IMG/VR virus record: IMGVR_UViG_3300024264_000039
Span: 1 to 57,680 of that record
Length of the DNA stretch: 57,680 nt
Reading direction: 5' to 3' (one strand)
From: a virus
Taxonomy: Duplodnaviria; Caudoviricetes
Below the pieces are notes generated by a model. The model worked only from the letters and a program-made list of their open reading frames with translations. It was not told where the DNA came from and ran no database searches. How positions within the stretch are numbered: position 1 is the stretch's first letter; every line of letters begins with the position of its first letter. Both the position numbers and the translations under genes were made by a program. Positions 8,287 to 51,638 of this stretch are shown one piece after another.

Positions 8287-9891
8287 CTATGCTGTGCTTT
8301 GTGGTAATACTAAAGTAACTCCATACTTCATATTAAATTTATCTACATCACCTTGTGTTCTGATGTAAGAAAAATCTTGTAAAGCTTCGTTACTTCCTGC
8401 AATCAATCTAACCACATCGTCTGTTATTTCTTTAGGTAATCTATTTCTAATTTCTTCAAAAGATAGTTGAGCTGTTTGTGCAGTGGGTACTTGACCTTGA
8501 CCTACTTCTGCTTCTTCTGGTTTAGTACCAAACTTTAATCCTATTCTACCTCCATCTTTTTTACTTAAAACTCCTACATTTGCAGCATCTATTCTTCTTA
8601 TCGAAGCCATTAATTCTGGATAATTGCTAAAAAATTCAATTCGTGCCTTATAACTTTCTAAAGCTTCTGCATATTCAGCAGAATTTTTATCCATCTTAGC
8701 AAGTTTTTTAGCACCTTTTTCAAATTGTTTTAAATTTGCAATTGCTTTATCGGGATCTAATATTTTAGTTGTATCTGATTTACCTCCGATATATTTAATC
8801 AATTCTTTTTCCATAGATAATTCAGCTTCAGCTGCTGCTTTTTGTTCTTTAGTAAATGAACCTGTAGTATCCTTTATAATTTTACTTAACTTTTTCATTC
8901 GATTAAATTGTTTTTCACTAAAACCTTCTTTACCTGCCATGATTTTAGCTTTCTCTATTTCTTTAGTTGCAGTGTACGCTAACTTAGCAATGTCTTTTCT
9001 ATCTTTTTTCTTACCTTGCATGATGCCTAGTAGCGATTTGTTTAGGACTGCAGCTTTGTCTGCAATAGTTCCTGGTGTTCCGATCGCTTCAGATAGGGCA
9101 ATAGCTGCCATACCTTTTTGATCATCATCACCTATTAATTTTTCTATTCTAGATTTTTCTATTTCAAAGGTATCTTCAAAAGTTGGTTCTGTAGGTTGAT
9201 CGTCATCTGTTGTCTTTTCTGCAACGACTGTATCAACAATCTCTTCCATGTTAACTTCTTTAGGTCCTGCATTAGGTAAGAAGCCAGCATCAGTACCATA
9301 TAACTCTTCCTCAATTTCTCTGTCCTCTGTTCTTCCTAAAAACTTTGGATATTTTCCTGTTTCAGTATCCATAAAAATAGCATCAGTAAAACTAATCTCA
9401 TCTCCTACTTTACGAGCATCTAATCTATCCTTCATAACTTTATTATAATCTTCTGCTACACCGAATGTCTCATCCAGCATACCATAATCCTGCATTACCT
9501 TTTTCTCCGCTAAAGTTTTAGGTCTGTTCATGTAAGCCAAACCTGCAGGTAAAACAAAAGGAGCCGCCATTATTCCAGTAGTGCTAGCTGATGGAACAGC
9601 CAAATTACGAAGTTGAGTTAATAAACGTGCGCCTCTAGTTCCTTTAGTAAGACCCTTTCCAGTATTTACGTTTACTGGTTTCTTAGATAAATTAGAACCA
9701 CCTGTCAGTTCTTCTGCCATGTTTCCACTTATAATATCAAGCACAGAAAAACCTGATCTAGTTCCTAAATTAGAACCTGATATTATTCCGCCACCGATGT
9801 TTCCACCACCAGCATACATTTTTCTATTAGAACTTAATTGACCAATACCAGTTGATCCGCCTCTTCTAAATGATGGTCTTTTAAAATACAT
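8287..9891 (-). CDS. Putative internal virion protein
   Basis: 534 aa; carries the KKDGGRIGLKFG module shared with 10778..13126. Confidence 0.65.
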   Translation of the reverse strand: MYFKRPSFRRGGSTGIGQLSSNRKMYAGGGNIGGGIISGSNLGTRSGFSVLDIISGNMAEELTGGSNLSKKPVNVNTGKGLTKGTRGARLLTQLRNLAVPSASTTGIMAAPFVLPAGLAYMNRPKTLAEKKVMQDYGMLDETFGVAEDYNKVMKDRLDARKVGDEISFTDAIFMDTETGKYPKFLGRTEDREIEEELYGTDAGFLPNAGPKEVNMEEIVDTVVAEKTTDDDQPTEPTFEDTFEIEKSRIEKLIGDDDQKGMAAIALSEAIGTPGTIADKAAVLNKSLLGIMQGKKKDRKDIAKLAYTATKEIEKAKIMAGKEGFSEKQFNRMKKLSKIIKDTTGSFTKEQKAAAEAELSMEKELIKYIGGKSDTTKILDPDKAIANLKQFEKGAKKLAKMDKNSAEYAEALESYKARIEFFSNYPELMASIRRIDAANVGVLSKKDGGRIGLKFGTKPEEAEVGQGQVPTAQTAQLSFEEIRNRLPKEITDDVVRLIAGSNEALQDFSYIRTQGDVDKFNMKYGVTLVLPQSTA

Positions 9892-10778
9892 TATTTTCCT
9901 CCAAAAATACTTCCCAAACCATAAGCACTTAATCCAGCAGATAAAGCTTGTGATAAAGGTCCAACTGTTCCACCACCCATGCCTATTTGTTGTGTTGTTG
10001 TAGGTGAACCACTTGCTTGTGATGCAATTCCTGATCCAAAAGCTTGGATTCTACTTAATGGTTCATTGTATGCTAATTGATTTTGTTGTTGTAAAGCATC
10101 TAGTTGCGCTTGTTGATAAGCCAAGTTCCCTGTACCAGCTGCACCTAATTGTTGTACACCTGAAGCCGCTAAAGATGGTTGTAATGATGCTAAGTTTCTT
10201 TGTTGTTCAAAACCTTGTTGTGCTAATTGATTCGCTTGAGTGAAACCTTGACCTAATAATTGAGCTTGTAGTAATGCTCTTTTTTGTGCAGCGTCCGTTG
10301 CATATTGAGCTTGAGCCACACCTTCTCTACCACCACCGAAAGCTCCAGCGTTAATAGCATTGGCTGCAAGTTGTGGTACACCTCTAGCTGTTTGAGTATC
10401 AAACTCTGCAAGAGTCGTATCAATTACTTGTTGTTGATAAGGTGACATGAAAGATTGGAAAGCTTGTGGACCTGAATATGCTGCTGCCTGATCCAAGAAA
10501 GGTTGGTAACCTGCAACTCCTGTTCCAGCGGCTGCACCTGTTACAGCTCCATCTGCACCAAAAGTTAATTGACCAAGTCCTGCTTGAGTTGCTGCTTGTT
10601 GTTGAGCAGCTTGTGTTAAAACGTTTTGTCCTGCAATTTGTGGTCCAAGTTCCGATAACGTTGGTACACCAGTAGAGCCAGGAGCTCTACCAACTTGTTG
10701 TGTTAATAAATCTATGTATTGTTGTTGAGCTGCTTCTATTGCAGGAGATCTTCTTACCGTTTGTGTATAATCTGCCAT
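9891..10778 (-). CDS. Gln/Ala/Gly-rich DNA pilot/ejection protein
   Basis: 295 aa, Q/A/G-rich, GAFGGGR motif, hydrophobic Gly-rich C-terminus. Confidence 0.65.
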   Translation of the reverse strand: MADYTQTVRRSPAIEAAQQQYIDLLTQQVGRAPGSTGVPTLSELGPQIAGQNVLTQAAQQQAATQAGLGQLTFGADGAVTGAAAGTGVAGYQPFLDQAAAYSGPQAFQSFMSPYQQQVIDTTLAEFDTQTARGVPQLAANAINAGAFGGGREGVAQAQYATDAAQKRALLQAQLLGQGFTQANQLAQQGFEQQRNLASLQPSLAASGVQQLGAAGTGNLAYQQAQLDALQQQNQLAYNEPLSRIQAFGSGIASQASGSPTTTQQIGMGGGTVGPLSQALSAGLSAYGLGSIFGGK

Positions 10779-13126
10779 TATGCTTTACCTACTTTTTCTG
10801 CTTGTTTCATTGTGTTGTATAATTTCTTAGATCCTTCTTCAACACTGCCATTACCTATACCACGTACAGCATCAGCAGTCATTACAAATTCATTTTTAGA
10901 TAACATAGCGGGGACATCATCGGCTCTTTCTTTAATACCGACCGGTACAAAACCACCTTCATCTCTGTAGTCTCTTTCAACTACACCTGCATTATTTTTT
11001 CTCATTTGACCTGTTGGTACATCACTTATGCCACCCACTGATTTAAATGTTTTACCTGTTAGTTGAAATATCTCTGCTTCAATGTCGGATACATCTTCAC
11101 CTTTACCAACTAACTGATCTCTTAAAATTAATAGTTCTGATACCCTGTTAGCACCACCTTTGTAACCTATTCTTCCGCCTTTAGCTCTATTTTCATAATC
11201 TATTCCTAATAAAAGTTCTAAAGGATTTCTATCTTCATTAAAATCTTCTAATCTAATTTTTTTGTTATGTTCTCTCATTTTCTCGTTTATAGGGAACCTA
11301 ATTTTTCCAGGTTTTAAAAATAATTGACCTTCATCACTATTTAAAAAAGCTTCTATGTAAGCTTGTTTTTCTGGAGACAATTTATCGTAGTCACTTGAAT
11401 CACGTTTAAAAGTACCTCTGTTATCATTTTTACCATCTTTAAATTTATCTGGAGTACCAAACATTATAGGGTCCCCAAAAAAGAATTCACTTGCACCATA
11501 TCTTCCTTCTTGAGCTATTTTACTATTTAAAAGTTTTTCTATTAAACTTTCATCTGTTCCATCTTTAAGACCTATTCTTCCGCCGTCTTTTTTACCAAGA
11601 CCTGCATTGATAGTTATTTGTTTTAATATTGCTGAATCATTAGGATAAGATCCAGGACTATTTAAAATTCTGAACAATTGTGGCATTGTATAAGACCTAT
11701 CTGTTCCACCAGCACCGCCAAGTTTTTTAAACAAATATGATTTTTCTGCAGAGTTAAAAGATATACCCGCAGCCATTTCCATATCTTCTTCATCTTCGTC
11801 ATCACCTGTTTCAACGTCAATAGTCATGATACCCACTTCTGCTTCTTCTGGTTTAGAACCGAACTTTAATCCTATTCTGCCACCGTCTTTTTTACCGAAA
11901 ACAGATAAATCTATTACTTCACCCTCAAGTCCTGGCGGTATTGAATCTGCAACTATGTTTAATCCATATTTTATTGCATCAGACTTAAGCATTTTTTCTA
12001 ATTTTATTCCTTCAGGACCATAATTTTCAACTAATACTACTTCTGGTTCTCTTGTTATATCAAAATCCTCCAGAGTATATGTAGATTTATTTGCATCTGG
12101 ATCATTAGACTCATAAAATTGTTCCATGATTTCGTCTGGAGTTCCATCAGCAAATCCTATTCTGCCACCATCTTTTTTACCACCAAAGAAATTAGTTAAG
12201 TAACTTGCGTACTCTTCTTGTTTGTCTCCTTTAGCTATTTCATCATAAGTTTCTTCTGTGATATCTACTCCAGCGTCCGCTGCTAATGCTCTAGCTTCTG
12301 CGTATGATCCAGCGAAAGCTATTGCTCCCATTACTGCTGCTTTGTCAATAGAACCATCCTTATTTGTAAAAGCTGCTTTACCAAATTTTTTACCTAGCTC
12401 TAAAGCTTTATTGCCAAGTTTTGAATAATCAAAATCTTTAACTTTATCTGCTGCGGTTTTAAATAAATTAAATTCTTGTGACGCTGCTTGTTTAACATCG
12501 CCTACTAAAGACATGTCGGAAGCGTCTACTAATGCTTCTGTAGCTGTACCTGCGTAATCATTTAAATTTGTAGGTATAATTTCTGTACCTGCGTAATCAT
12601 TTAAATTTGTGGGTATAATTTCTGTAGTTGTTCCTGAGTAATCATTTAAATTTGTGGGTGTAATAGTTTCATTTACTCCTTCGACTCCTGTAGTTCCTCG
12701 GTTCGAGAAGAACTTACCAAGACCCGTCTCTGTTCCTATAGGAGAACTGAATCCACCTTTAAAACCTTGTAGTCCACCTGTGAATGCTCCACCATCTCCA
12801 AAAGGGTTACCTTGAAAACCTGCTCCACCTGCATATCTTGCTAACTGACCCCCACCGTAATTCATAGCTCCAGATTTTAAACCTGCACTAATACTTCCTG
12901 TTTGATCGAATGTACCTATTCCTGACATTGCTGCTGCAACTGCCGGGTTAAATGGTGCAACAAAGGGTGCAGCTTTAACGGCTATGTCTGCTATTTCATT
13001 AGGTATAATTTTTCTTGCAAATTTTTTAAGTTTACTTCCTAAGCCAAATTTTTCTCTAGGTGCAACTTGCATGATGCCACCATTTGCTTGTAATTGTCTG
13101 TTCATTAAAGATCTAGATATCGCCAT
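10778..13126 (-). CDS. Internal virion protein with repeated GGRIG modules
   Basis: 782 aa; four (K/R)xxGGRIG repeats, three PTNLNDY repeats, and a C-terminal DDVPAMLSKNEFV motif like that in phage tape-measure/ejection proteins. Confidence 0.65.
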   Translation of the reverse strand: MAISRSLMNRQLQANGGIMQVAPREKFGLGSKLKKFARKIIPNEIADIAVKAAPFVAPFNPAVAAAMSGIGTFDQTGSISAGLKSGAMNYGGGQLARYAGGAGFQGNPFGDGGAFTGGLQGFKGGFSSPIGTETGLGKFFSNRGTTGVEGVNETITPTNLNDYSGTTTEIIPTNLNDYAGTEIIPTNLNDYAGTATEALVDASDMSLVGDVKQAASQEFNLFKTAADKVKDFDYSKLGNKALELGKKFGKAAFTNKDGSIDKAAVMGAIAFAGSYAEARALAADAGVDITEETYDEIAKGDKQEEYASYLTNFFGGKKDGGRIGFADGTPDEIMEQFYESNDPDANKSTYTLEDFDITREPEVVLVENYGPEGIKLEKMLKSDAIKYGLNIVADSIPPGLEGEVIDLSVFGKKDGGRIGLKFGSKPEEAEVGIMTIDVETGDDEDEEDMEMAAGISFNSAEKSYLFKKLGGAGGTDRSYTMPQLFRILNSPGSYPNDSAILKQITINAGLGKKDGGRIGLKDGTDESLIEKLLNSKIAQEGRYGASEFFFGDPIMFGTPDKFKDGKNDNRGTFKRDSSDYDKLSPEKQAYIEAFLNSDEGQLFLKPGKIRFPINEKMREHNKKIRLEDFNEDRNPLELLLGIDYENRAKGGRIGYKGGANRVSELLILRDQLVGKGEDVSDIEAEIFQLTGKTFKSVGGISDVPTGQMRKNNAGVVERDYRDEGGFVPVGIKERADDVPAMLSKNEFVMTADAVRGIGNGSVEEGSKKLYNTMKQAEKVGKA
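12545..12670. repeat. Intragenic tandem repeat, 3 units of 39-45 bp
   Basis: Repeated GTAATCATTTAAATTTGT core, encoding PTNLNDY(S/A)GT three times. Confidence 0.9.
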
Positions 13127-17687: not shown

Positions 17688-18014
17688 TTAATTTTTTGGT
17701 AGTATTATATTCCAATCTAGCTTAGATATCAAATCTTCTAATTGTACATCTTTCACATTATTCTCTCTTAAATATTGATGTAATTCTTCTACATCCACAA
17801 TAATCCATTTATCAATAAAAAATACCATTTTATCCGCTTTAGTTTTAAAGCTGCCTATTTTAAATCCTTCTTTAGTAAGGGGTCTTGTATCAAATTTTAA
17901 TTTTTGATTTAATCTATTTTTAAGAACTCCTGATATATTCCATAATTCTTTCTGTTGTTGATTGGGAGAAGCGTAGGTAATATCTTCTAAATACTTTTTA
18001 AATTCATTTAACAT
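17688..18014 (-). CDS. Hypothetical protein
   Basis: 108-aa ORF overlapping the carbamoyltransferase stop. Confidence 0.65.
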   Translation of the reverse strand: MLNEFKKYLEDITYASPNQQQKELWNISGVLKNRLNQKLKFDTRPLTKEGFKIGSFKTKADKMVFFIDKWIIVDVEELHQYLRENNVKDVQLEDLISKLDWNIILPKN

Positions 18015-19434
18015 ATAATTTATTTATTTCAGGTAAATAGATATATTTTAATTTACTATTATTTATAAAATTCATCATATCTTCTTTAGTTTCTACTAAT
18101 ACTTCTCCTGGTAAATTTAAACTTGTATTTACTAACATAGGCACTTTAGTTACTTTATAAACTTCTTTTAACAAATCATAATAATGTTTATTTGTTTGAT
18201 CCACCGTTTGTACTCTACAAGAATCATCTACGGCGTATCCAGTGTAAATATTTTTTTTATTTTTTATCTTATATGCCTTCATCATATATGGGCTGTCTAT
18301 TTCTTTACCAAACCATTTAGAAGTTTCTTCTTTTAAACAACTTAAAGAAAACGGTCTATACCATTCTCTTTTTTTTATTTCGTTAATTTTATTAAAAGAT
18401 TGTTTACAAGTAGGACTTATCAATAAGGATCTATAACCTAACCCTCTTTGACCTTGTTCACTTCTAGATTGAAATATTGCAACAGGTTCTTTTTTTAATA
18501 TGCTGGCTACTTCATTTACTGTAGTTTTTCTTAAATTTTTAAAATTTAATTTTTGAGGTATGCCTAAATCTATATTATTTATTCTTATATTATTATTTGT
18601 GTAATAATTAGCTGCACCTAAACTTATACCAAAGTCTCCATTAAAAGGACTAAAAAAAATGTTTTTATTATTTTCTTCTAACTTAGAATTAACTAAAACA
18701 TTTTGTGCGACACCCCCTGTAAATACAATTTTATAATTTTCATAATCTTTAAAAAACCAAAGCATATCTTTTTCAGTGCAAAATTGTAAACTGTATGCTA
18801 TGTCCCTAGCAGTCTTGTTTGTTTTCTTTATTGTTTGTAGTGGTTTAATGTTTAATGATTTATTAGTATATTTTCCATATAATGAAAGTGCCATTGTTTT
18901 ACCTTCTGTAAGCCAGCAATCTCCCATAAGTGCATTACTAATCTTTTGATATCTTTTACCTATTTTTTGAAAAGTTCTTTTGTCAAATGTAAGTTCATTA
19001 TTATAATAATTATAAACACTTTCTGTTTCATGCTCCTCTGTTCCGTAATATGTTTTTTGTAAACTTCCACTACCGTCCATAACAATAATTTTACATGGAT
19101 GAAATTTGTTCCAAGTTAAAGCTTCATAAGCATGAAATAAATGGTGATCTTTATTTGCATACTGAATAACTTCAACATTTTGTAATTTATCTAACCATTT
19201 TTTACTAGTGTGAAAAATACTATTTATAATGTTAGGATAGTCCCAAAACAGACATGTAATAATTAGCTTGTCAAAAGGTATTTCATAAAAATAATCTAAA
19301 AGTTTTTTTGATATGAAAGGACAGTGTTTTATTCTGTTGTATCTATCTAACTGTGTGTGAAATATTACTTTATTATTATCTACATAGGTAGCAGAACCAT
19401 CATGATCTAAATATAAAGATAATATTTTAGTCAT
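18004..19434 (-). CDS. Carbamoyltransferase (NodU/CmcH/TobZ family)
   Basis: HDGS, HHLFHA, DGSG, EGKTMAL, GGVAQN, GDFGISLGAA, QRGLGYRS, KKREWYRPF, RVQTV and NTSLN motifs of the Kae1-like and YrdC-like domains. Confidence 0.92.
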   Translation of the reverse strand: MTKILSLYLDHDGSATYVDNNKVIFHTQLDRYNRIKHCPFISKKLLDYFYEIPFDKLIITCLFWDYPNIINSIFHTSKKWLDKLQNVEVIQYANKDHHLFHAYEALTWNKFHPCKIIVMDGSGSLQKTYYGTEEHETESVYNYYNNELTFDKRTFQKIGKRYQKISNALMGDCWLTEGKTMALSLYGKYTNKSLNIKPLQTIKKTNKTARDIAYSLQFCTEKDMLWFFKDYENYKIVFTGGVAQNVLVNSKLEENNKNIFFSPFNGDFGISLGAANYYTNNNIRINNIDLGIPQKLNFKNLRKTTVNEVASILKKEPVAIFQSRSEQGQRGLGYRSLLISPTCKQSFNKINEIKKREWYRPFSLSCLKEETSKWFGKEIDSPYMMKAYKIKNKKNIYTGYAVDDSCRVQTVDQTNKHYYDLLKEVYKVTKVPMLVNTSLNLPGEVLVETKEDMMNFINNSKLKYIYLPEINKLYVK

Positions 19435-34265: not shown

Positions 34266-34294
34266 GTTATCCACAGAAAGTATCATGTTGTCAA
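34266..34294 (-). promoter_or_regulatory. Sigma70 promoter whose -10 overlaps a DnaA box
   Basis: TTGACA-17 nt-GATAAC; TTATCCACA at 34267-34275. Confidence 0.5.
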
Positions 34295-38904: not shown

Positions 38905-39040
38905 TTATTTTCTCCAATTTATCTTGTTTATATGCTTTTGATTGATTAATCAAGCCTTGTGGATTGGGACCACTAAGAGGTGGTATTTGATCTCTTCTTA
39001 CATAAGGCATATTTTCAGTAAGTGTTGGGTTCTTTTTCAT
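38858..39040 (-). CDS. Hypothetical protein
   Basis: 60 aa with PP-x-SGP-x-PQGL motif; coupled to the terL stop. Confidence 0.55.
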   Translation of the reverse strand: MKKNPTLTENMPYVRRDQIPPLSGPNPQGLINQSKAYKQDKLEKINGRHRQSINRNKKNG

Positions 39041-40515
39041 TACCAGTAAAATTTCTTTTTTCTTTTAGGCTGTTGTTCTTCTTGATAATCTTCAGGGTGA
39101 TCTATAAATCCGCCTTGTCTATACCTTAACAGAGCCTGTGTTGTACTGTCAACTAAATCGTCATGATCACCGTAAGGAAACGCAGCACATTCTTCAACAA
39201 GTTCTTGAGCAAACTCTTGATCGAGAGGTGCCCAAATTTGTCCGGCTTCAAAAAGTGGAGAGACTGCATTTACTCTTGCAACTTTATCTTGACCTTTACT
39301 CGGTGTAAAATTCATTGCAGGAATTCCCATCTGTCTGAGTTCATACATCAAAGGTAGTCCTGATGCTTTTGCTTCAATGATAACTGTTTCAGGATTCCAA
39401 TACTTATATTGCTCGAGTGCTACACGACGAAGTTCTGGAAACTCTAAACGTTCCTTATAAGAATCTAATAATATTAATTGACGAGGCGAGTCTTCATTAG
39501 GACGAAAAACTCCCCAGGTAGTAATAGCAGAGTAATCTGCAGTTTCTTTTTTAAGATACGCTGTATCATAACTTTGAATTGTGTGTTCGATGTGAGGCAT
39601 ATGTTTAGACTCCCAATTTTTCCACCACTCCCTTTTAATGAGAGCTCCTTCTTCTGAAGTTGGGTTCTGCATATACTGCGCGTTCCACTTTGCAACACCA
39701 GCAGAAGCTTTGACAGATTCGAGGTCCTCGAGCTTCCAATATTCAGGCCAGACTGGTTTACCTGTAGGTAAGATCGCAGGGAACTCTACCACTTCCCATT
39801 GATCCGCGTTCTCGTTGCTTTGTGCGTTTAACAATTTTTGTGTTAAATCTTTTGTAGACCATCTTGTCATAACGACAACAATACGACCTCCAGGTTGAAG
39901 ACGTTGTCTTGGTCCTGAAGTATACCACTCGTATGCTTTATCAAATGCCGAAGGTGAACTTACGTCTTGCTCTGAATGTGGATCATCGATGATGAGTAGA
40001 TCAGCACCTCTCCCGGTCACCGCACCTTGGACACCGACTGCAAAGTATTCACCACCATCGGAGGTATTCCAACGTCCTGCAGCTTTACTATCTTCTTGGA
40101 GTCGTGTATTAAAAATTTGTTGATACTCTTCTGAGTCAATTAAATGTTTTGCTTTACGTCCAAAGTTTATAGCAAGCTCCGCTGTGTGAGTTGCTTGAAT
40201 AATTTTTAATTTAGGATTCTGCCCGATCATAAAAGCAGGGAGAAAGAACGACGCAAATTCAGATTTAGTATGCCTAGGTGGCATGTTTATAATTAGACGG
40301 GTCAATTCTCCGGTTGCCAATCTATTAAATTTATCTGCTATGGTTTGATGATGGGACCCCTCTATAAAATCTGGCCACATCTTTTTTACAAAAGATAAAA
40401 AATTAGTTTTAACTTGCTTAAGTTCTTTTCTTTGATGTCGTTGTATAATCTGTATCTTGAGCTTTCTTCGCTCAATAGGATCTTCTATTTTATTAATATC
40501 TTCAACAGTTAGCAT
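39040..40515 (-). CDS. terL: Terminase large subunit
   Basis: MPPRHTKS Walker A, LLIIDD Walker B, MTRW motif III, DTA and HDDLVD nuclease motifs; start likely MLTVED at 40515. Confidence 0.95.
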   Translation of the reverse strand: MLTVEDINKIEDPIERRKLKIQIIQRHQRKELKQVKTNFLSFVKKMWPDFIEGSHHQTIADKFNRLATGELTRLIINMPPRHTKSEFASFFLPAFMIGQNPKLKIIQATHTAELAINFGRKAKHLIDSEEYQQIFNTRLQEDSKAAGRWNTSDGGEYFAVGVQGAVTGRGADLLIIDDPHSEQDVSSPSAFDKAYEWYTSGPRQRLQPGGRIVVVMTRWSTKDLTQKLLNAQSNENADQWEVVEFPAILPTGKPVWPEYWKLEDLESVKASAGVAKWNAQYMQNPTSEEGALIKREWWKNWESKHMPHIEHTIQSYDTAYLKKETADYSAITTWGVFRPNEDSPRQLILLDSYKERLEFPELRRVALEQYKYWNPETVIIEAKASGLPLMYELRQMGIPAMNFTPSKGQDKVARVNAVSPLFEAGQIWAPLDQEFAQELVEECAAFPYGDHDDLVDSTTQALLRYRQGGFIDHPEDYQEEQQPKRKKKFYW

Positions 40516-40699
40516 ACATTTAAATATGGGTGGTAAAGTATTATACATGATTAACAATGCAAATCAAACTATATAGGGTAGGTCTGGGACCCCTATAATT
40601 TTAGGGGGTATTCGCGTAAACATAAGAAGTTCGAATTTGGATATAGTTCCTTTAGGGTCCCCTTTGGGTGGGTCCCGCCCACATGCTCTTCTCTATGAG

Positions 40700-40755
40700 C
40701 TATGCAGTTTGTGCATAGGACAATGTAGGATAGGCCATGCAAATACTGCATGGCC
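40700..40755. promoter_or_regulatory. Two ATGCA-N5-TGCAT palindromes
   Basis: CTATGCA-gtttg-TGCATAG (40700-40718) and GGCCATGCA-aatac-TGCATGGCC (40733-40755). Confidence 0.5.
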
Positions 40756-40772
40756 ATTCTTCCTTAACGAAG

Positions 40773-41132
40773 CTAGTCTTTTATCTTATTCAAGATACCT
40801 CTTTCAATATTCTTTAACTGATTAACCATGAACTTATGTCGAGTCTTCACATTAACAATACCTCGGTTCGTGATTACTATTCTTAAACCCAAATGATTTT
40901 TGAATAGCTGTCGAAGAGCAGAGTCACTTGGATCTTGGTTAAAGTAAGCTTTGCCCCAAACAAAATCTAAAAACCTAGTTCTGAAAATAATTTCCTCGAC
41001 AGTTTTTTCTGTGATTTCATTTACTCCGATTGCCATCATCAACCAACCTAGAGTGTCCGCTTGTTTTCTTTCATCTGTAGTGAAAGTCATCGTGTTGTAC
41101 TTGTTCATCGCGTTGTAGTGTACTTCTAACAT
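40773..41132 (-). CDS. Hypothetical (probably early) protein
   Basis: 119 aa, GAAAGGA RBS. Confidence 0.7.
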   Translation of the reverse strand: MLEVHYNAMNKYNTMTFTTDERKQADTLGWLMMAIGVNEITEKTVEEIIFRTRFLDFVWGKAYFNQDPSDSALRQLFKNHLGLRIVITNRGIVNVKTRHKFMVNQLKNIERGILNKIKD

Positions 41133-41210
41133 TGTATTCCTTTCGTTAAGTTAATTTTAATTTAGCAGAATATCCTATATTGTAAATAATTAATTTGGCA
41201 CTTTAGTGCC

Positions 41211-41219
41211 TGTGGATAA
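41211..41219 (-). promoter_or_regulatory. DnaA box
   Basis: TGTGGATAA is the reverse complement of the consensus TTATCCACA; intergenic. Confidence 0.5.
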
Positions 41220-41224
41220 CTTTG

Positions 41225-41240
41225 GCACAAGATGTAGTGC
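41225..41240. promoter_or_regulatory. NrdR-box-like site
   Basis: GCACAAGATGTAGTGC; 12 of 14 core positions match CACWATATATWGTG. Confidence 0.45.
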
Positions 41241-41301
41241 TGCCTTTTTTCTTTTTTTAGGGTGGGCCCCGCCCACATGCTCTTATCTATTTTTTTCTAG
41301 T

Positions 41302-41328
41302 GTGGCGTGTGTGTTAATCACACGCCAC
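41302..41328. terminator. Hairpin / terminator
   Basis: GTGGCGTGTG-7 nt-CACACGCCAC; T-rich tail on the plus strand; just downstream of minus-strand ORF 41339..41569. Confidence 0.6.
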
Positions 41329-41338
41329 GTTTATTTAT

Positions 41339-41569
41339 TTACTTATCAAAATCAAACTCCATTTGTTTTTTATTTCGTTCAAAACTTTTATCAAGTCTTG
41401 AATAATTATCCTCGGTACTCGGTATTCCTGCAAACATTGAAACAACACCTGCAAAACAAATTAACAAGCCAAGTAATCTATGGTCTGCCGAGTGAATGAA
41501 AGTAATAAAACCTAACATGACAATAATAAAACCTACTAGTATCATGGTTAATCTTGCAACTACTTCCAT
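41339..41569 (-). CDS. Small two-TM membrane protein
   Basis: Two hydrophobic helices, charged C-terminus. Confidence 0.65.
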   Translation of the reverse strand: MEVVARLTMILVGFIIVMLGFITFIHSADHRLLGLLICFAGVVSMFAGIPSTEDNYSRLDKSFERNKKQMEFDFDK

Positions 41570-42165
41570 TATTTTGCTCCACTTGGTAAAGCTAACAGCG
41601 AATTAGGTAAATCTAATTGTATGTTAGCGGTTGCCATTTCTTTTTGCAACTCAACCAACGTTGGTTGAATGTGGCTTCCAGTATAAAGTATATTCAAACA
41701 CTTTTTCTTTTTACCCTCTAGTGCATGATATAATTTATGCTTTGCTCTCGCGTGGGCTTCTGCCTCTTCATAACAAGCTTTTTTAATTTTCTTGTGTATG
41801 TAATCAACTGCGTCGTGGTCATCTTTTATAGTGACATTGACCGAGGACATATCCCATTTACGTTGCTTTCTTTTATTATTAAAAATCTCTGATATTTGGT
41901 CAGCGATTTCCTGAGCATTACGTTGCAAGTCATATTCCATAGATTGTTTTTTACTTTGGAAATCTCGCAAAGCTTTTTCTCTTTTTGCCATTTCTGAAAT
42001 CAACTTTTCTAGTTTCAGTTCTTTAGCAAATTGAGATCCAACTTCCTCAACTTTATCGTAAGCTTGTTGAGATATTTCTTGCTCAACATGATTTGACGCA
42101 ATACTGAATTCATCTCTTACGAATTCTTTGTAATGGTCAACGTGGTCTTTTCTTAATGGTTGCAT
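41569..42165 (-). CDS. Coiled-coil hypothetical (probably early) protein
   Basis: 198 aa, GAAAGGA RBS, near-consensus promoter upstream. Confidence 0.75.
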   Translation of the reverse strand: MQPLRKDHVDHYKEFVRDEFSIASNHVEQEISQQAYDKVEEVGSQFAKELKLEKLISEMAKREKALRDFQSKKQSMEYDLQRNAQEIADQISEIFNNKRKQRKWDMSSVNVTIKDDHDAVDYIHKKIKKACYEEAEAHARAKHKLYHALEGKKKKCLNILYTGSHIQPTLVELQKEMATANIQLDLPNSLLALPSGAK

Positions 42166-42207
42166 AATGTATTCCTTTCTATGTTAGTTATTATTACAAC
42201 TGATTTG

Positions 42208-42236
42208 TTTATAGGTTATTATAGGATATATGTCAA
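42208..42236 (-). promoter_or_regulatory. Sigma70 promoter with ATCCTA box
   Basis: TTGACA-TATATCCTATAATAACC-TATAAA (17-nt spacer). Confidence 0.65.
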
Positions 42237-42355
42237 CCCCTAAAAAACATTTATTTTTATTTTTTTTATATGGGTGGGCCCCGCCCACATGCACTTACCA
42301 CAGCTGCAAGCTCAAAGGGTGGGTCCCGCCCACACGCTCTTCTCTGACCGCGGGT

Positions 42356-42384
42356 AGTATATAGGAAAATATAGGATATGTCAA
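42356..42384 (-). promoter_or_regulatory. Sigma70 promoter with ATCCTA/TTCCTA boxes
   Basis: TTGACA-TATCCTATATTTTCCTA-TATACT (17-nt spacer). Confidence 0.65.
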
Positions 42385-42441
42385 GAAGTTTATTTTGGCC
42401 GCTGCCCTTGCATCCTGGACATAATAGGATATATAAGATCT

Positions 42442-43056
42442 ATGAAAGAAAAAATATTAAACACGGCCCACGCTTGGCAAATAGTAGGCGGCCTTAGCAA
42501 GCCTGGAAAAATGCCTGGATGGTCAATAGGTATACCCGCTAAAGAGTGCAACACGGGCGGCAAGCTGCAGGATAAAGAAGGCAGCGTCTGCAATGATTGC
42601 TACGCTTTAAAAGGTTGTTACGTTTTTAAAGTTGTACAAGATGCACAATATAGAAGGCTAGCAGCTATTAAAGACCCGCGATGGGTCGACGCCATGACAA
42701 TGCTAATTAATTCAAAAAAGCCTAATATTTTTAGATGGCACGATTCGGGTGATGTCCAAGACCTGGAACACCTTCAAAAAATTTATGCCGTCTGTAGGTT
42801 AACGCCTACTAGAATGCATTGGATGCCAACTAAGGAAGCATGGGTCAAGAAATATTTAAAATATAAGCCTGACAATTTAACAATTAGATTGTCTTCACCA
42901 ATGGTGAACCAGGGACCAATTAGCAGCTGGCCCAATACTTCAACAGTAGTTACAACTAAAGCAACATGTCCAGCACCTGAGCAGGGCGGCAAATGTTTAG
43001 ATTGTAGAAAATGCTGGAACCCAAAAATTAAAAATATTAGTTATGGCAAGCATTAG
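42442..43056 (+). CDS. Gp88-like Cys-rich protein
   Basis: KMPG-x-S, C...CxxCYA, FRWHDSGD, CPA...CxxCRxCW pattern. Confidence 0.7.
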   Translation: MKEKILNTAHAWQIVGGLSKPGKMPGWSIGIPAKECNTGGKLQDKEGSVCNDCYALKGCYVFKVVQDAQYRRLAAIKDPRWVDAMTMLINSKKPNIFRWHDSGDVQDLEHLQKIYAVCRLTPTRMHWMPTKEAWVKKYLKYKPDNLTIRLSSPMVNQGPISSWPNTSTVVTTKATCPAPEQGGKCLDCRKCWNPKIKNISYGKH

Positions 43057-43297
43057 ATCTAAGCATAACAATCTATTAAACTATTTCATTTGCGATCACA
43101 GGCATCTATCTAAGGCCTACGTCCGCAAGTGTGAAAAATTTTTTGCTGCGGCTGGTCCGTTGGAAAATGATATACGGAAACCGAGATGTAGCCACGAGGT
43201 CGCAAAGCCTCTAGGAACCAGACTTCGGACGCAGCAGAAACAGAGGGCTGGTAGTATTCCACCAGCCCTCAAGCAACATGAAAGAAGGAAAATATGA
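43043..43297 (+). CDS. Hypothetical protein (C-terminal half overlaps the structured RNA candidate)
   Basis: 84-aa ORF overlapping both neighbours. Confidence 0.4.
   Translation: MASIRSKHNNLLNYFICDHRHLSKAYVRKCEKFFAAAGPLENDIRKPRCSHEVAKPLGTRLRTQQKQRAGSIPPALKQHERRKI
43141..43270. ncRNA. Candidate structured RNA
   Basis: TTTTGCTGCG/CGCAGCAGAA closing stem; internal CTGGT/ACCAG, CCGT/ACGG and GAGG/CCTC stems; then a GAGGGCTGGT/ACCAGCCCTC hairpin. Confidence 0.45.
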
Positions 43298-43479
43298 GAT
43301 GGGAAATAATGCTCGGCAATAAGGGTGAAATAAATGAATGCTTAGATTGTGGCCACAAGTCTAAAAATTGGGCTGAACGGGTCGCAAGCAAGGGCAATGA
43401 AAATGATGAGATGGAACCCGACGGAACCAACAAAGTATTTTGTCCAAAATGTAAATACTACCATTACTACTGTGCCTAG
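43294..43479 (+). CDS. Small zinc-ribbon protein
   Basis: CLDC...CPKC; ATGA coupling, AAGGA RBS. Confidence 0.6.
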   Translation: MRWEIMLGNKGEINECLDCGHKSKNWAERVASKGNENDEMEPDGTNKVFCPKCKYYHYYCA

Positions 43480-43572
43480 TAATGGTAGGAATAAAAAATA
43501 AGGGTGGGTCCCGCCCACAAGCACGCACCACAACCCACAAGTGTAGTCCACAGGCAACAGGCCACAGGTTCA

Positions 43573-43588
43573 TGTTTCACGTGAAACA
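43573..43588. promoter_or_regulatory. parS: parS centromere site
   Basis: Exact TGTTTCACGTGAAACA palindrome, the canonical bacterial chromosomal parS. Confidence 0.8.
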
Positions 43589-43687
43589 TTTTTTTCTTTT
43601 TTTTCCTTGGGTGGGTCCCGCCCACACGCTCTTCTCTGAGCCGCGACACTTTGGCCATTGACCTTGGACATAGGATATTGTAGGACG

Positions 43688-44059
43688 CTAAACCTTTTGT
43701 AGAAATTTAAAGATTGACATCATGCCCACGGCACAAGGTTCGGCAGAACCGATCACAAGATCACGGATCTTGGATCCTTCATAAAGTTTTATGTCTCTCT
43801 GACAGAGGCCCTTGGCCATGATGAAACTATTGTGCGGGTGCTTGATATGAAAGCCAATTTGATGTGGAGAGAAGCGAATTTTTTTAACCAAATTTAACTT
43901 TAATTCGATAGTGAAAAAGTGGCCAGAATTATTATAAACCAATAGATCAGGAGTCCCGTGTGCAGCACTATTTTCCACGCGTGTAAATGATAATTTGCAA
44001 TTATTTTTAATATTGAACGCTTTAATTTCATGCCAAAATTTAGTCTCTCCCTTAATCAT
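43688..44059 (-). CDS. PD-(D/E)XK nuclease (VRR-NUC / resolvase-like)
   Basis: E...GTPDL...IELK...Q motif. Confidence 0.75.
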   Translation of the reverse strand: MIKGETKFWHEIKAFNIKNNCKLSFTRVENSAAHGTPDLLVYNNSGHFFTIELKLNLVKKIRFSPHQIGFHIKHPHNSFIMAKGLCQRDIKLYEGSKIRDLVIGSAEPCAVGMMSIFKFLQKV

Positions 44060-44091
44060 TTTTCAAGTTAAGTCCGGAGCATAAAAGTTAA

Positions 44092-44316
44092 CTAAATTTT
44101 CTTAATTACTTCACCCATATTCCATTTAGATGTATACAAAGTTATCACCAATCTATGTGTTTCTCGGACTCCAAGTATTTTGTTTTCCATTAATTTAATG
44201 TCCTTGATGTCGTAATATTTCCCGTCGGGTAAACACACTTGTACTCTTGCCTCTTGTGCTACTGGCGATTTCATAAACTTGTCTAGGGCCTGTCTTAATA
44301 GCTTTCCGGATACCAT
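44092..44316 (-). CDS. Hypothetical protein
   Basis: Start likely MVSGKLL at 44316. Confidence 0.6.
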   Translation of the reverse strand: MVSGKLLRQALDKFMKSPVAQEARVQVCLPDGKYYDIKDIKLMENKILGVRETHRLVITLYTSKWNMGEVIKKI

Positions 44317-44319
44317 CAC

Positions 44320-44348
44320 TTGAATGTATACCAAAAATAATTTATAAT
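44320..44348 (+). promoter_or_regulatory. Sigma70 promoter giving a probable leaderless terS transcript
   Basis: TTGAAT-17 nt-TATAAT ends 6 nt before the terS ATG; no Shine-Dalgarno. Confidence 0.55.
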
Positions 44349-44354
44349 GCAAGC

Positions 44355-44834
44355 ATGGGAGTTCCTAAAAGACTTACAGAGAAACAAATTAAATTTGCTA
44401 ATCTAATCGTAACAGAAGAAGGTCGAAAGACTGATTCTGAATGTGCTATTGCTGCAGGTTATAAACCGGATGGTGCTTACGTCTGTGCAAGTAGACTTCA
44501 AAACCCATCAATGTATCCTTTGGTTGCTCAATACATTGGAAGACTCAGAGCAGAGAAGTTAAAAAAATATGACATCACTTATGAAAAGCACCTGGCAGAA
44601 TTAGGTAAAATTAGAGACGAAGCTAGAGAAAGTAAAGCCTGGAGTGCTGCAGGTAACATGGAAGTAGCTAGAGGTAAAGCTGCAGGGTTTCAAAATAATA
44701 CTAATTTACACTTACATAAAAACTTAGATAACGTGGATGAATCTGAGTTAGACAAAGAATTAGAGAAAGCATTAAAGAACTTTAAACCAATTATTGATTC
44801 TGATGCAGAAGTGATTGAAGAATCTAAAGACTAA
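44355..44834 (+). CDS. terS: Terminase small subunit
   Basis: LTEKQ-x-x-F...CAIAAGY...ASRL HTH-type N-terminus followed by helical oligomerisation region. Confidence 0.75.
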   Translation: MGVPKRLTEKQIKFANLIVTEEGRKTDSECAIAAGYKPDGAYVCASRLQNPSMYPLVAQYIGRLRAEKLKKYDITYEKHLAELGKIRDEARESKAWSAAGNMEVARGKAAGFQNNTNLHLHKNLDNVDESELDKELEKALKNFKPIIDSDAEVIEESKD

Positions 44835-45123
44835 CTTTCTCCATTTTAGTTACAATTGATTTAGGAAATACATTACGATCAGAAAAGACTGCAGACTCAG
44901 TATCATAAGAAGCAAATGTCCAAACATGTTTATTATCTTTATCAAAGACATAAGCTTGAGTCATCATCTTTGCAGGTTTTAAATCTTTCACATCAGCCGC
45001 TTCAGCATGGCCGGAATCTCCGCAAGGATCAATCCACTCAATAGAATAAAAATAATATTTCTGTTTACCTATTACTGCATGTTTATATTTTGACTTTTTT
45101 CTTTTCATACCTCTGTATAGCAC
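44824..45123 (-). CDS. Hypothetical protein
   Basis: IEWID...ASYD...FP pattern; start may be MKRKK. Confidence 0.6.
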   Translation of the reverse strand: MLYRGMKRKKSKYKHAVIGKQKYYFYSIEWIDPCGDSGHAEAADVKDLKPAKMMTQAYVFDKDNKHVWTFASYDTESAVFSDRNVFPKSIVTKMEKVSL

Positions 45124-45190
45124 CTATAGGTTTTTTCTCTAGGCACATTTTTTTTCAAAAACTTTTTCTTATGCGCGCGTACGGGTTTGC

Positions 45191-45334
45191 TAGAAGTGTT
45201 AATATAAGCCACTTATTGTAAATTGTAACAGCTGTAACACCATTGTAACAGCGTTTTGTTACAAAAATATCGTCTAGAAGTGTTGGTATATGCGAATAAT
45301 AGCACTTTGAAAGCCATTGTAACCATTGTAACAC
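45191..45334. repeat. Iteron-like TGTAAC cluster in a non-coding gap
   Basis: TGTAAC at 45224, 45233, 45244, 45318 and 45327, inverted GTTACA at 45258; TAGAAGTGTT at 45191 and 45275. Confidence 0.75.
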
Positions 45335-45445
45335 TGTTTTGGAAATTGAAAAACAAAAAAACTTTTCTGGCAAAAAAAGTCTATAGGTAGAAACTTGCCT
45401 TATTCTTGCCATAAGTGTTGTAAATATACAACAAATTGTGGCTTT

Positions 45446-45643
45446 TTAGACACAATCTGCGCAATATCTAGGATCCTTGGCGCTAGTCCAACCATACAAA
45501 ACGTTGTTACAATCTTTTGCTTTACAAATTGTGGTGCCTTTGCCATCATTTTTTGGTTTGTTACCAAATATTTCATCAAAATTTTTTCGGTACAAATCAC
45601 TTGAAGGTCTAGATTTACCATCATTAGGAAATCTTTTTTTCAT
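45446..45643 (-). CDS. Small Cys-containing protein
   Basis: 65 aa, AAGGAG RBS, C-x4-C...CxxC. Confidence 0.6.
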   Translation of the reverse strand: MKKRFPNDGKSRPSSDLYRKNFDEIFGNKPKNDGKGTTICKAKDCNNVLYGWTSAKDPRYCADCV

Positions 45644-47216: not shown

Positions 47217-47773
47217 TATATTTTTTTCTCTAGGCAGATTTTATTTTTTCCTTGGTCCAAGATATCAAAGTCGTAATACTTTAATATATCCCTAATTAGC
47301 TGCATATTATATTTAGGATAGTCATCAAAAATATAACGAGTCTTAGGTGCTGCACGATTCGCAAACCAAATACACTCAGTAATTACATCACGAGTCATGT
47401 GAGGACCATCGAAGTGTACCAATGCAAATCTCGAGTCCTGGTGGGCCCTGTCACTCATAAATTTAGTATCTGTATCATTATACAAAGTAAACTTACCTTG
47501 ATTACGATAAGGTTTAAAATCATGAAGCATAGTGTCTCTCATTTGATCTGTATAATCACAAGTATATTTACCCGTGTCATCGTAGTGTTGATACTCTAGA
47601 TTACCATAAGGATCGATACCAATATGAATGTAATTATTTTTTACATTATCCATAATAATTTTAGATCCCATACCTTCACGTACACCTATCTCAACTGACG
47701 CGAAACCATCACAATCAAAGTCCTTGGTCCATCGTTCTAATAACTCGTAGTCTGTGCTATCTCCTTTAATCAT
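47216..47773 (-). CDS. Class I SAM-dependent methyltransferase (Methyltransf_24-like)
   Basis: VEIGVREG-x-GS, GIDPY, VHFDGPH, DD motifs. Confidence 0.75.
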   Translation of the reverse strand: MIKGDSTDYELLERWTKDFDCDGFASVEIGVREGMGSKIIMDNVKNNYIHIGIDPYGNLEYQHYDDTGKYTCDYTDQMRDTMLHDFKPYRNQGKFTLYNDTDTKFMSDRAHQDSRFALVHFDGPHMTRDVITECIWFANRAAPKTRYIFDDYPKYNMQLIRDILKYYDFDILDQGKNKICLEKKI

Positions 47774-48195
47774 TATTCTGTTCCTTTTAATCTTTCCAAA
47801 GCTTGTTTATACGTCTCCATTATTTTTTCATGTTCACGAAAATATTTTTCAATGTCAGAATAACGCCATTGTTGTTTCTTCAAAATAACATCAAGAGATT
47901 CGATAGCTGCCTCTGAAGCATGGTTTAATACGTTATAGCTAAAGTTTGTTGCGATATCTTCCATTCTTTTAGGAAGTTGTTTCTCGGTCATACCTAAACG
48001 TAGTCCCATTAAACTTAAATTTTCTTTAACTTCATTTAATGACTTTCTACCAAAGTTAGGCATTCTAAGTAGTTCGCCTTCAGTTTTTAAGACAAGATCT
48101 CTTATTGTTGTTATATCAGGAGCATGACATAAAAAGGCGTTGTATGCTCTGACATTCATTTCTAGTTCTGTTATTTTTTGTTCTATTGGTTCCAT
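47773..48195 (-). CDS. RNA polymerase alpha-subunit C-terminal-domain protein
   Basis: [12 protein letters not shown]...[33 protein letters not shown]-x-x-MGLRLGM closely follows RpoA-CTD; followed by a helical extension of about 70 aa. Confidence 0.88.
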
Positions 48196-50830: not shown

Positions 50831-50989
50831 TTATCTTGTCCAAAAAAGTAATCTTTTTAAAAATTGTTTTATTTTTTTAATTATGTTTATTTTTTCTTGT
50901 GTTATTTCCCAAACACAATCACAAAAAGAACATTGTGCAATTCCTCTATGTCTATGTCCACAATCTATACATATACCATTATTAATCAT
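50831..50989 (-). CDS. Small Cys-rich protein, not in the ORF track
   Basis: MINNGICIDCGHRHRGIAQCSFCDCVWEITQEKINIIKKIKQFLKRLLFWTR (52 aa), GAGGAG RBS. Confidence 0.5.
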   Translation of the reverse strand: MINNGICIDCGHRHRGIAQCSFCDCVWEITQEKINIIKKIKQFLKRLLFWTR

Positions 50990-51638
50990 TTTTTTTCTCC
51001 TCAATCTCATAAAAGAAATTGTCTGTGTCTTCTGTTTTCCATTTACCCGTGTCCTCTACGTTCCATTCGTTCGTTTGAACTTTCCAATCAGGAATGTTGT
51101 CCTTAACTGTAAATGAAGGTAGGTCCCAAATACATCTATTGTTTGGTTGGGCTGCATAGTTGCCATCGTCTAAAGCAATTATGTGAGCGCACTTATGTTC
51201 GTGCGGTATTTCCGAATGATCGGTATCAACTATATTACTATCTGGGTGAGCCCAGTCAATAGTAAATAAATAACTACCGTGGTGCCATTTTTTATCTTTA
51301 CCAATGTACTTTCCTGAAGCTGCGCTTAAAATAGACCAATGAGTAACAGCAGGATAATAACTAAAAGAATTCCAAAGTTCCAATTCATCAAGTCTCGGGG
51401 ATGGAACAGACTCGGGTTCATAACCACGTTGAATAAAAGCCGTAATTGGGAGACGATAAAAGATTGCACCATTTTCCATAAGCGCATGCCATAAGATAGC
51501 ACGACCTCCCATAGAGGTAATACCAAAGATAATACAGTCTTCAACTTCTCCGTGATGTTTTTTACAGTCATATAAATACTCCCTTCGTATTTGTGCATAT
51601 GTTGGTGGTATGTTTGCATTTAAATAAGCCATAATCAA
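50982..51638 (-). CDS. Hypothetical phage protein
   Basis: 218 aa; YLFTIDW, EHKC-x-H, QPNNR motifs; directly after polA. Confidence 0.75.
   Translation of the reverse strand: MIMAYLNANIPPTYAQIRREYLYDCKKHHGEVEDCIIFGITSMGGRAILWHALMENGAIFYRLPITAFIQRGYEPESVPSPRLDELELWNSFSYYPAVTHWSILSAASGKYIGKDKKWHHGSYLFTIDWAHPDSNIVDTDHSEIPHEHKCAHIIALDDGNYAAQPNNRCIWDLPSFTVKDNIPDWKVQTNEWNVEDTGKWKTEDTDNFFYEIEEKKND

Follow-up and report, generated by a model that had tools for sequence, protein, structure and literature searches.

PeSL-like stem-loop repeats and host-type parS and DnaA sites in the terL–terS interval of an HTVC023P-type pelagiphage genome

Repeated stem-loop/promoter elements, termed PeSL, have been described from the hyperplastic regions of T4-type phages (Arbiol et al., 2010, PMC2839356; Comeau et al., 2014, PMC4122927). 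The locus analyzed here is the interval between the large terminase gene (terL) and the small terminase gene (terS) of a viral DNA of 57,680 bases, hereafter the window, which is one IMG/VR virus record with a completeness estimate of 95%. The gaps between the small genes of this interval carry a GC-rich stem-loop repeat, a canonical parS site and a DnaA box. In the reading that we favor, with a probability of about one half, the stretch is a hyperplastic cassette region with PeSL-like stem-loop/promoter elements, in which host-type sites (parS and often a DnaA box) are kept by selection.

In Bacillus subtilis, one chromosomal parS stabilizes a plasmid. A replicon that carries the cis site alone, with the partition protein encoded elsewhere, is exemplified by SGI1, which uses the ParABS system of an IncC plasmid (PMC10954446) and was the nearest precedent found for an orphan parS. 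Such plasmids and islands persist in dividing cells, whereas the cultured pelagiphages of the group to which the window belongs are described as lytic. The repeat is best placed among the PeSL elements, as one of their variants, and the orphan parS among cases of centromere hitch-hiking.

The genome in the window is almost complete and is that of a pelagiphage of the HTVC023P type. Among named records, it is closest to HTVC027P and HTVC023P, which are Pelagibacter phages, and to 023Pt_psg01, a metagenomic phage, with terL nucleotide identities of approximately 67–72%. These named relatives point to SAR11 as the probable host. Cultured members of the HTVC023P group are described as lytic, with lysogeny genes unreported, in a 2019 preprint. 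For comparison, IMG/VR was searched with terL and the best 80 of 597 relatives were taken as the related loci, while 80 loci of the HTVC027P clade were compared separately as a second set. A terL scan of genome contigs returned only three contigs mis-binned into metagenome-assembled genomes (Anaerolineales, Thalassarchaeaceae and Nitrospinales), and none from Pelagibacter.

The GC-rich stem-loop repeat and the cassette borders

An earlier note on this DNA, made from the sequence alone, had seen a GC-rich repeat in each gap of the interval. Consistent with this, GGGTGGGYCCCGCCCACA was found in six exact copies, all on the + strand and confined to 40666–43639 (Table 1); no further copy was present in the 57,680 bases, and 100 shuffles gave 0. 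The conserved unit of the repeat is about 29–31 nt. Among the related loci, the 18-mer (≤2 mismatches) was present in 74/80, with 301 copies in total and up to nine per locus, and all 301 lay on one strand relative to terL, compared with 0 on the opposite strand. The consensus built from 252 unique copies has 29 conserved nt, consisting of a T-rich tract, GGGTGGGYCCCGCCCACA and then WGCTCTTMTCT, and its core folds into a GC stem of 6–7 bp with a 3-nt loop. In the more distant relatives, the corresponding gaps hold other repeats instead, namely GGGGTGGGTGGGCCC-type units and GCGAGC arrays in 023Pt_psg01, CAAGC heptamer arrays in HTVC027P and AT-rich tandem repeats in HTVC023P, and 0/80 loci from the HTVC027P clade had the window-type repeat. 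This distribution marks the repeat as lineage-specific among phages, which argues against its being a site for a host factor.

Alignment of 40000–45200 with the relatives showed blocks of homology broken by replaced segments; the 119-aa gene, for instance, is swapped out in four loci (L009, L013, L040 and L070). Homology blocks ≥150 nt long had 265 internal ends, of which 86 (32%) fell within 20 nt of a repeat copy, compared with an expectation of 10.5%, the share of the interval that such windows occupy. The commonest breakpoint, at about 42290 with 29 ends, corresponds to copies 3/4, and other joints were at gene ends. The repeat, which the earlier note had described as phage-specific and interleaved with host-protein sites, behaves as a cassette-border element, marking sites of gene-cassette exchange.

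Compared with PeSL as portrayed in the two reports cited above, the likeness is threefold. The element is a composite, in which a stem-loop (G tract, then C tract) is combined with an AT-rich stretch and a promoter of sigma70 type, although some copies have no promoter beside them; it recurs from gap to gap within a hyperplastic region where small ORFans abound; and the joints of indels and replacements among relatives coincide with the elements. However, the hosts and phage families differ, the present phage being a podovirus of, probably, SAR11, and the element sequence is distinct. All copies here are on one strand while the flanking genes lie on both, so that element orientation fails to follow the transcription units, and the gaps also carry host-type parS and DnaA sites. 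The comparison is made at the sequence level, where terminator, promoter and mini-circle activities are predictions.

In the favored reading, the region of this one HTVC023P-type clade would comprise hyperplastic regulatory cassettes that separate terS from the late operon beginning at terL, and each gap would have the polar 29-nt GC-rich stem-loop beside sigma70-type promoters and ordinary hairpins. The stem-loop elements may insulate small transcription units, and may serve as homology patches where related phages exchange small genes, like the T4-type PeSL. The gaps would further carry the two host-type sites, one parS per genome, and, in about half of the relatives, a DnaA box just upstream of a cassette promoter. 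In cultured HTVC027P, three + strand genes of this interval, the GP88-family homolog gp33, its neighbor gp34, and gp30 beside terS, were the sole genes assigned to extra temporal expression classes (PMC12753301), and this fits separate transcription units in the interval.

Contig ends are frequent at repeat copies, as assemblers are expected to break there, and the polar repeat explains the assembly fragmentation of this phage group here. One contig of 58,681 nt (G011, behind locus L024) has identical first and last 353 nt, bar one early base; its genome is closed at about 58.3 kb, though classed as linear, and the 353-nt overlap includes parS and terminates within a repeat copy. Such ends would also be met if the repeat were a one-directional DNA signal, that is, a series of small-terminase (pac) sites, or a Chi-like recombination or anti-exonuclease signal near the packaging start, the mosaic joints being a by-product of recombination stimulated there. 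The strict polarity of the copies, their restriction to the terL–terS stretch, the conservation of their sequence without stem covariation and the enrichment of breakpoints at them are in line with this, as are the other GC-rich short repeats at corresponding places in relatives, of which the heptamer arrays of HTVC027P adjoin the terminase genes. However, the copies are distributed over 3 kb among genes, unlike known pac/cos sites, and assembly by itself is expected to break contigs at a repeat of 30 nt. Moreover, a host Chi should be common to phages of the same host, whereas HTVC027P with its clade and HTVC023P are devoid of the motif. A DNA signal of this kind is considered unlikely.

Several other readings of the repeat were tried and dropped. 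By eye, the spacing was wrong for a sigma32-like promoter, the elements of the window clade have only two G-runs each for a G-quadruplex, and the matches to KOPS/SRS-like polar motifs were imperfect. A boxB-boxA (nut/rrn-like) reading of the hairpin plus YGCTCTT was given up, copies 1 and 2 having no + strand promoter upstream of them. In the 023Pt_psg01 locus (L001, 9151–10075), runs like G7-A-G3-T-G3 form possible G-quadruplexes, and GCGAGC/AAGC arrays follow the GP88-family gene.

The parS site and its possible readers

A perfect parS at 43573 had been reported in the earlier note, and this was confirmed. The site, TGTTTCACGTGAAACA, matches at 16/16 positions and is the sole match with ≤2 mismatches in the window genome, and shuffled sequences gave 0.42 matches at ≤3 mismatches. 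Complete intervals, containing both the terL start and terS, were available for 14/80 related loci, and 12/14 of them had exactly one parS (≤1 mismatch); the closed genome G011 likewise has a single copy. Three locations were found in relatives, all of them non-coding. The first, as in the window, is downstream of the + strand cassette, with a repeat copy on either side; the second, found in L013 and L032, is in the divergent promoter gap and immediately follows a repeat copy; and the third is 64 nt upstream of terL, where two GGGWCCCC motifs flank the site. When parS is upstream of terL, the window-type position is empty, with homology covering 43493–43568 and resuming at 43608. The window itself has a GGGWCCCC pair upstream of terL (40586–40593 and 40655–40662, about 70 nt apart), the pair that brackets parS in the sister clade, and a GC hairpin, ACCCCTA...TAGGGGT, at about 40589–40609.

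Across 32 distinct 76-nt contexts, positions 2–14 of parS were invariant and changes occurred at positions 1, 15 and 16 only, while the mean major-allele frequency of the flanks was 0.60–0.66. The A/T runs beside the site vary, with a T-rich tail in the window, L035 and L040 and an A-rich one in L009, L020 and L070, indicating that a terminator role is not the conserved property. Judged from these alignments, parS is maintained by purifying selection, as the DnaA box described below appears to be. The proteins of the phage gave no match to ParB_N, Bac_DnaA, the ribonucleotide reductase (RNR) large subunit or the ATP-cone, in agreement with the earlier note, which had recognized none of the cognate genes. 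Since the phage encodes neither ParB nor DnaA, we infer that the two sites must be read by host proteins.

A different possibility is that ParB does not use the 16-bp palindrome in vivo, the palindrome being either the operator of some phage protein or a bidirectional terminator that equals the parS consensus by coincidence. The T-run that follows it in the window, and the A-run that precedes it at the terL-proximal position and would allow a - strand terminator reading, are compatible with this, and the palindrome is always in gaps rich in other hairpins. Near-matches can also arise without selection: HTVC027P has a 15/16 match inside an unannotated 123-aa open reading frame (ORF), where it encodes FHVKH. 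This match was rejected as a selected element and taken as a coding by-product, as it is kept in 6/19 clade loci and synonymous variants are common. The ORF in question (L002, 13329–13700, - strand) is homologous to 43688–44059 of the window and falls where the deposited annotation is empty. However, a hairpin would accept compensatory changes, which is at odds with the invariant core, and the flanking A/T runs are not conserved. The chance expectation of an exact 16/16 match is far under one per genome, and no phage DNA-binding protein appears to co-vary with the site. Either version, operator or terminator, is considered very unlikely.

A non-coding parS was found in 0/80 loci of the HTVC027P clade, and the reader-less non-coding parS is, on these comparisons, a trait of the window clade, with terL at least about 86% identical. 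To our knowledge, this clade has no cultured members.

In the table of PMC7022226, this 16-mer is given as the parS of the Hyphomonas chromosome, and a degenerate form of it as that of Caulobacter, in which ParB is essential. Among Pelagibacter genomes, the adjacency ParA->ParB is conserved according to a preprint (10.64898/2026.04.03.716430). The phage site thus resembles the chromosomal parS of ParABS systems (consensus tGTTtCAcGTGAAAca) in its identical 16 bp, as far as the alphaproteobacterial ParB entries of that table (PMC7022226) go, and in an invariant core as expected of a protein-binding site. In contrast to the chromosomal sites, it is located on a lytic genome without parA/parB and in one copy, away from any origin and shifting among three intergenic gaps, and its binding and segregation roles are predictions.

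Following the favored reading, host ParB would probably load on the infecting genome, as SAR11 ParB should bind the phage parS provided that its specificity is the usual one. The consequences could be positioning or partition of the phage DNA, SMC loading, local promoter silencing, or ParB sequestration; partition or positioning by the host ParABS and decoy or titration are equally possible. We further propose, tentatively and at less than even odds, that the phage is a client of the SAR11 chromosome-maintenance machinery, having one parS, often a DnaA box, and no reader genes of its own. As such a client, it would have host ParB-CTP clamps loaded on its DNA, which might partition or position the DNA in slowly dividing cells and give a carrier-like state in a supposedly purely lytic phage; alternatively, ParB might be sequestered and host segregation stalled.

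The literature searched, including the available portions of papers that contain the 16-mer, yielded no account of an orphan parS of host type in a lytic phage, and a paper in mSystems on uncultivated HTVC023P-type phages does not use the words parS, promoter, intergenic or hypervariable. The perfect 16-mer was present in at least 119 IMG/VR contigs. When 10 long parS contigs were picked by hand, ParB_N was above the cut-off in one, weak in two and undetected in seven, five of which are at least 90% complete; this small hand-picked sample suggests that a reader-less parS may be common in viral genomes. If the client proposal is true, the orphan parS may be a general phage strategy. The phage group is the ocean's most abundant, and the window clade keeps exactly one host-type centromere in most complete intervals. 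The conserved, reader-less parS provides a concrete and testable handle, as the phage genome and host ParB are predicted to be in direct physical contact, and such a link, if true, would have consequences for persistence, host cell-cycle arrest or DNA organization in the long latent period.

The DnaA box, the NrdR-like palindrome and the weighing of the reading

The first-step-transfer or injection-stop region of phage T5 is non-coding, rich in repeats and palindromes, and carries DnaA boxes. The interval of the window resembles it as a non-coding, repeat- and palindrome-rich stretch with a DnaA box in a lytic phage, but T5 has many boxes in its terminal repeat, whereas here a single box is beside a promoter.

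The earlier note had placed a DnaA box and an NrdR-like box at 41211–41240, of which the former proved to be perfect and the latter was not sustained. The DnaA box, TTATCCACA, is at 41211–41219 (- strand) and a second perfect copy of this 9-mer is at 34267. In the relatives, 38 perfect boxes were counted in 182 kb of intervals compared with 2 in 372 kb outside, which is about 39-fold denser, and a box was located 400–1200 nt from the terL start in 28/54 loci with enough sequence, in 24 distinct contexts. Both orientations and unrelated flanking sequences were observed, while the box always lay to the left of repeat copy 2, a short way upstream of the promoter-like motif in the second gap. An oriC-like origin was rejected, since the interval has one box (≤1 mismatch) and no cluster.

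The NrdR-like box at 41224–41240 has four mismatches to the 16-nt consensus acaCwAtATaTwGtgt. No NrdR box (≤3 mismatches) was present in the interval, and the single match of the genome, at 19217, compares with 3.2 expected. Tandem NrdR boxes were not found either, there being a single candidate. Similarly, the twin ATGCA-N5-TGCAT palindromes of the earlier note are present, but as hairpin tops or stems, and the NrdR-like box is likewise a hairpin stem; on this evidence, a regulator-site role for either is without support. The lower stems of the ATGCA hairpins co-vary in relatives, from GGCC/GGCC to GCCC/GGGC, and elsewhere are replaced by a different extended stem, CCCTATGCA...TGCATAGGG. Of the four host-protein sites that had been proposed, two, parS and the DnaA box, behave as selected elements in relatives. 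As a separate observation, a perfect box of the NrdR consensus, ACACAATATATTGTGT, occurs only in the relatives L056 (~3684) and L057 (~4888), where it overlaps a TTGACA hexamer downstream of repeat copy 1, and variants with two mismatches occur in L050 and L055.

The earlier note had inferred that host replication regulators are recruited or titrated by this DNA with rising phage copy number. As a decoy of this kind, the island would draw off host ParB, DnaA and NrdR and thereby disable segregation, replication control and dNTP regulation. The parS and the DnaA box indeed behave as selected host-type sites whose readers are absent from the phage, and extra parS copies disturb division in Caulobacter. 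Sequestration could harm a host in which ParB is essential, as it is in the alphaproteobacteria tabulated in PMC7022226. However, each genome has one parS and at most one DnaA box, without clusters, and titration is not favored with one site per genome. In addition, the NrdR box is without support, the sites are absent from cultured HTVC023P and from 023Pt_psg01, and the GC repeat that makes up the bulk of the supposed island is lineage-specific and acts as a cassette border. The decoy is accordingly regarded as improbable.

A number of observations weigh against the favored reading. For the repeat, no compensatory stem changes were found; rare variants (A/C at stem position 2, G at its partner) break the pairing, so that the repeat looks conserved as sequence, and sequence recognition by a protein, or homogenization by recombination, fits it better than a purely structural role. 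Its strand is fixed regardless of gene direction, and this strict polarity is left unexplained by the PeSL model. The breakpoint enrichment is approximately 3-fold and comes from related loci, which inflates the nominal p-value. Among contigs from RNA libraries, X15 and X16 cover 30/30 bins and X17 covers 9/30, but contigs have no starts, ends or strands and say nothing on transcription, so the terminator or insulator function stays a prediction. Of the DNA raw-read run X21, only nine reads could be placed, and the joints listed in this read comparison, which have short sides at 90% likeness, were left out of the evidence. For the host-type sites, parS is missing from 2/14 complete intervals, both in the most divergent group (terL about 76–78% identical), and at ≤2 mismatches from HTVC023P and 023Pt_psg01, and in the window, parS with its T-run also resembles an intrinsic terminator. 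The DnaA box is absent from about half of the relatives and from HTVC023P, HTVC027P and 023Pt_psg01, and DnaA boxes are not enriched in the window genome as a whole, with 17 matches (≤1 mismatch) compared with 19.8 expected. Finally, the host-side case for parS and ParB comes from the literature rather than from direct comparison with a host genome.

Genes, promoters and further features of the window

The features of the interval are collected in Table 1. The labels terL and terS of the earlier note were borne out by the PHROG matches, and terL is the first gene of a long - strand late block. Almost every gene of the window is on the - strand, whereas the small ORFs between the terL start and terS are on both. 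The interval is hyperplastic in that it consists of small genes without known function, with gene content differing among relatives. At E ≤0.01 in Pfam, 7/8 ORFs of the terL–terS interval had no family, the GP88-family protein (PF17338, E 3.5e-25) being the exception; the match of the 86-aa ORF was sub-threshold and at chance level. A search of PDB sequences with the GP88-like protein gave nothing significant, and an Rfam scan of 40300–45500 at E ≤1 gave 0 matches. For the 123-aa ORF, called a resolvase in the earlier note, Pfam, PHROGs, NCBIfam and PDB sequences offered no match to any resolvase, and that label was dropped.

Table 1. Coordinates of the features of the terL–terS interval, in window positions.
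Feature	Position	Strand	Remarks
terL (large terminase)	39040..40557	-	PHROG 38, E 1.7e-108; Pfam Terminase_6C + Terminase_6N
Repeat copy 1	40666..40696	+	folds with a 7-bp stem and a 3-nt loop
Two hairpins topped by ATGCA-N5-TGCAT palindromes	40700..40755	+	palindromes 40702–40716 and 40737–40751
119-aa ORF	40773..41132	-	no family match; exchangeable cassette
Palindrome GGCACTTTAGTGCC, DnaA box, second GGCAC...GTGC palindrome ("NrdR-like"), T-run	41197..41244	.	in this order
Repeat copy 2	41260..41290	+	
13-bp hairpin, then T-rich tail	41299..41331	+	terminator-like
76-aa and 198-aa ORFs	41339..42165	-	no family match; 198-aa gene kept in relatives
Sigma70-like promoter TTGACA-17-TATAAA of the 198-aa gene	42208..42236 (42236->42208)	-	holds ATAGGATAT
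Repeat copies 3 and 4	42272..42302, 42317..42347	+	
Sigma70-like promoter TTGACA-17-TATACT	42356..42384 (42384->42356)	-	11/12; faces the 198-aa gene
+ strand cassette	42442..43479	+	GP88-family protein 42442–43056; small ORFs 43043–43297 and 43294–43479
Repeat copy 5	43502..43532	+	A-rich left flank; CCACA/CCACAGG-type short repeats after it, to 43570
Canonical parS TGTTTCACGTGAAACA	43573..43588	.	16/16 match; T-run 43589–43608 after it
Repeat copy 6	43609..43639	+	
123-aa and 86-aa ORFs	43688..44352	-	function not assigned by match; 123-aa ORF = 43688–44059
terS (small terminase)	44355..44834	+	PHROG 51, E 2.3e-9; Pfam Terminase_2 under cut-off

The two near-consensus sigma70 promoters described by the earlier note are present, and both face the 198-aa gene; the note had placed them among the motifs of its island. 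They are best described as ordinary promoters of this neighboring gene. The motif ATAGGATAT occurs seven times compared with 0.95 expected (at 917, 41170, 42221, 42371, 42424, 43670 and 45904), in every case in a promoter-like gap, and is a second phage-specific motif, probably part of a promoter/operator family. A sigma54 promoter at TGGCAC-N5-TGC was dropped by eye, as the spacing is one off. The second ATGCA hairpin (40733–40755), with a stem of 9 bp, resembles a terminator when read on the + strand, and T-rich tails on that strand follow this hairpin, the hairpin at 41299–41331 and the NrdR-like palindrome.

The window also encodes, besides both terminase subunits, a portal protein, a DNA polymerase of family A, two helicases (UvrD-like and SNF2), an AEP-type primase and a PD-(D/E)XK nuclease-like protein whose match was under the Pfam cut-off. 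The structural block on the - strand (3887–8278, 8287–9891, 9891–10778 and 10778–13126) encodes proteins of 1463, 534, 295 and 782 aa with zero PHROG matches. With regard to a hairpin-promoter system as in N4-like phages, where a phage-encoded RNA polymerase would read the repeated motif, no RNA polymerase family was matched among the scanned window proteins, the 1463-, 782-, 534- and 295-aa proteins having been searched against PHROGs alone. Two auxiliary-type genes were found on the - strand, one for a Nol-like carbamoyltransferase (18004–19434; PHROG 1601, E 4.6e-95) and the other with a PHROG annotated as ferredoxin (50982–51638; E 1.9e-73).

A 140-aa protein (47773–48195, - strand) matches the C-terminal domain (CTD) of the RNA polymerase alpha subunit over its N-terminal ~80 residues (Pfam RNA_pol_A_CTD, E 4.7e-16, and NCBIfam rpoA models, without a PHROG match), and may be a free-standing alpha-CTD copy serving the takeover of host transcription. 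Just right of terS, 45223–45512 contains 5/7 of the genomic TTGTAACA sites, clustered in both orientations, with more GTAACA repeats and an 18-nt inverted repeat (45242–45259 / 45496–45513), and partly overlaps weak ORFs; this stretch is a candidate iteron or operator cluster.

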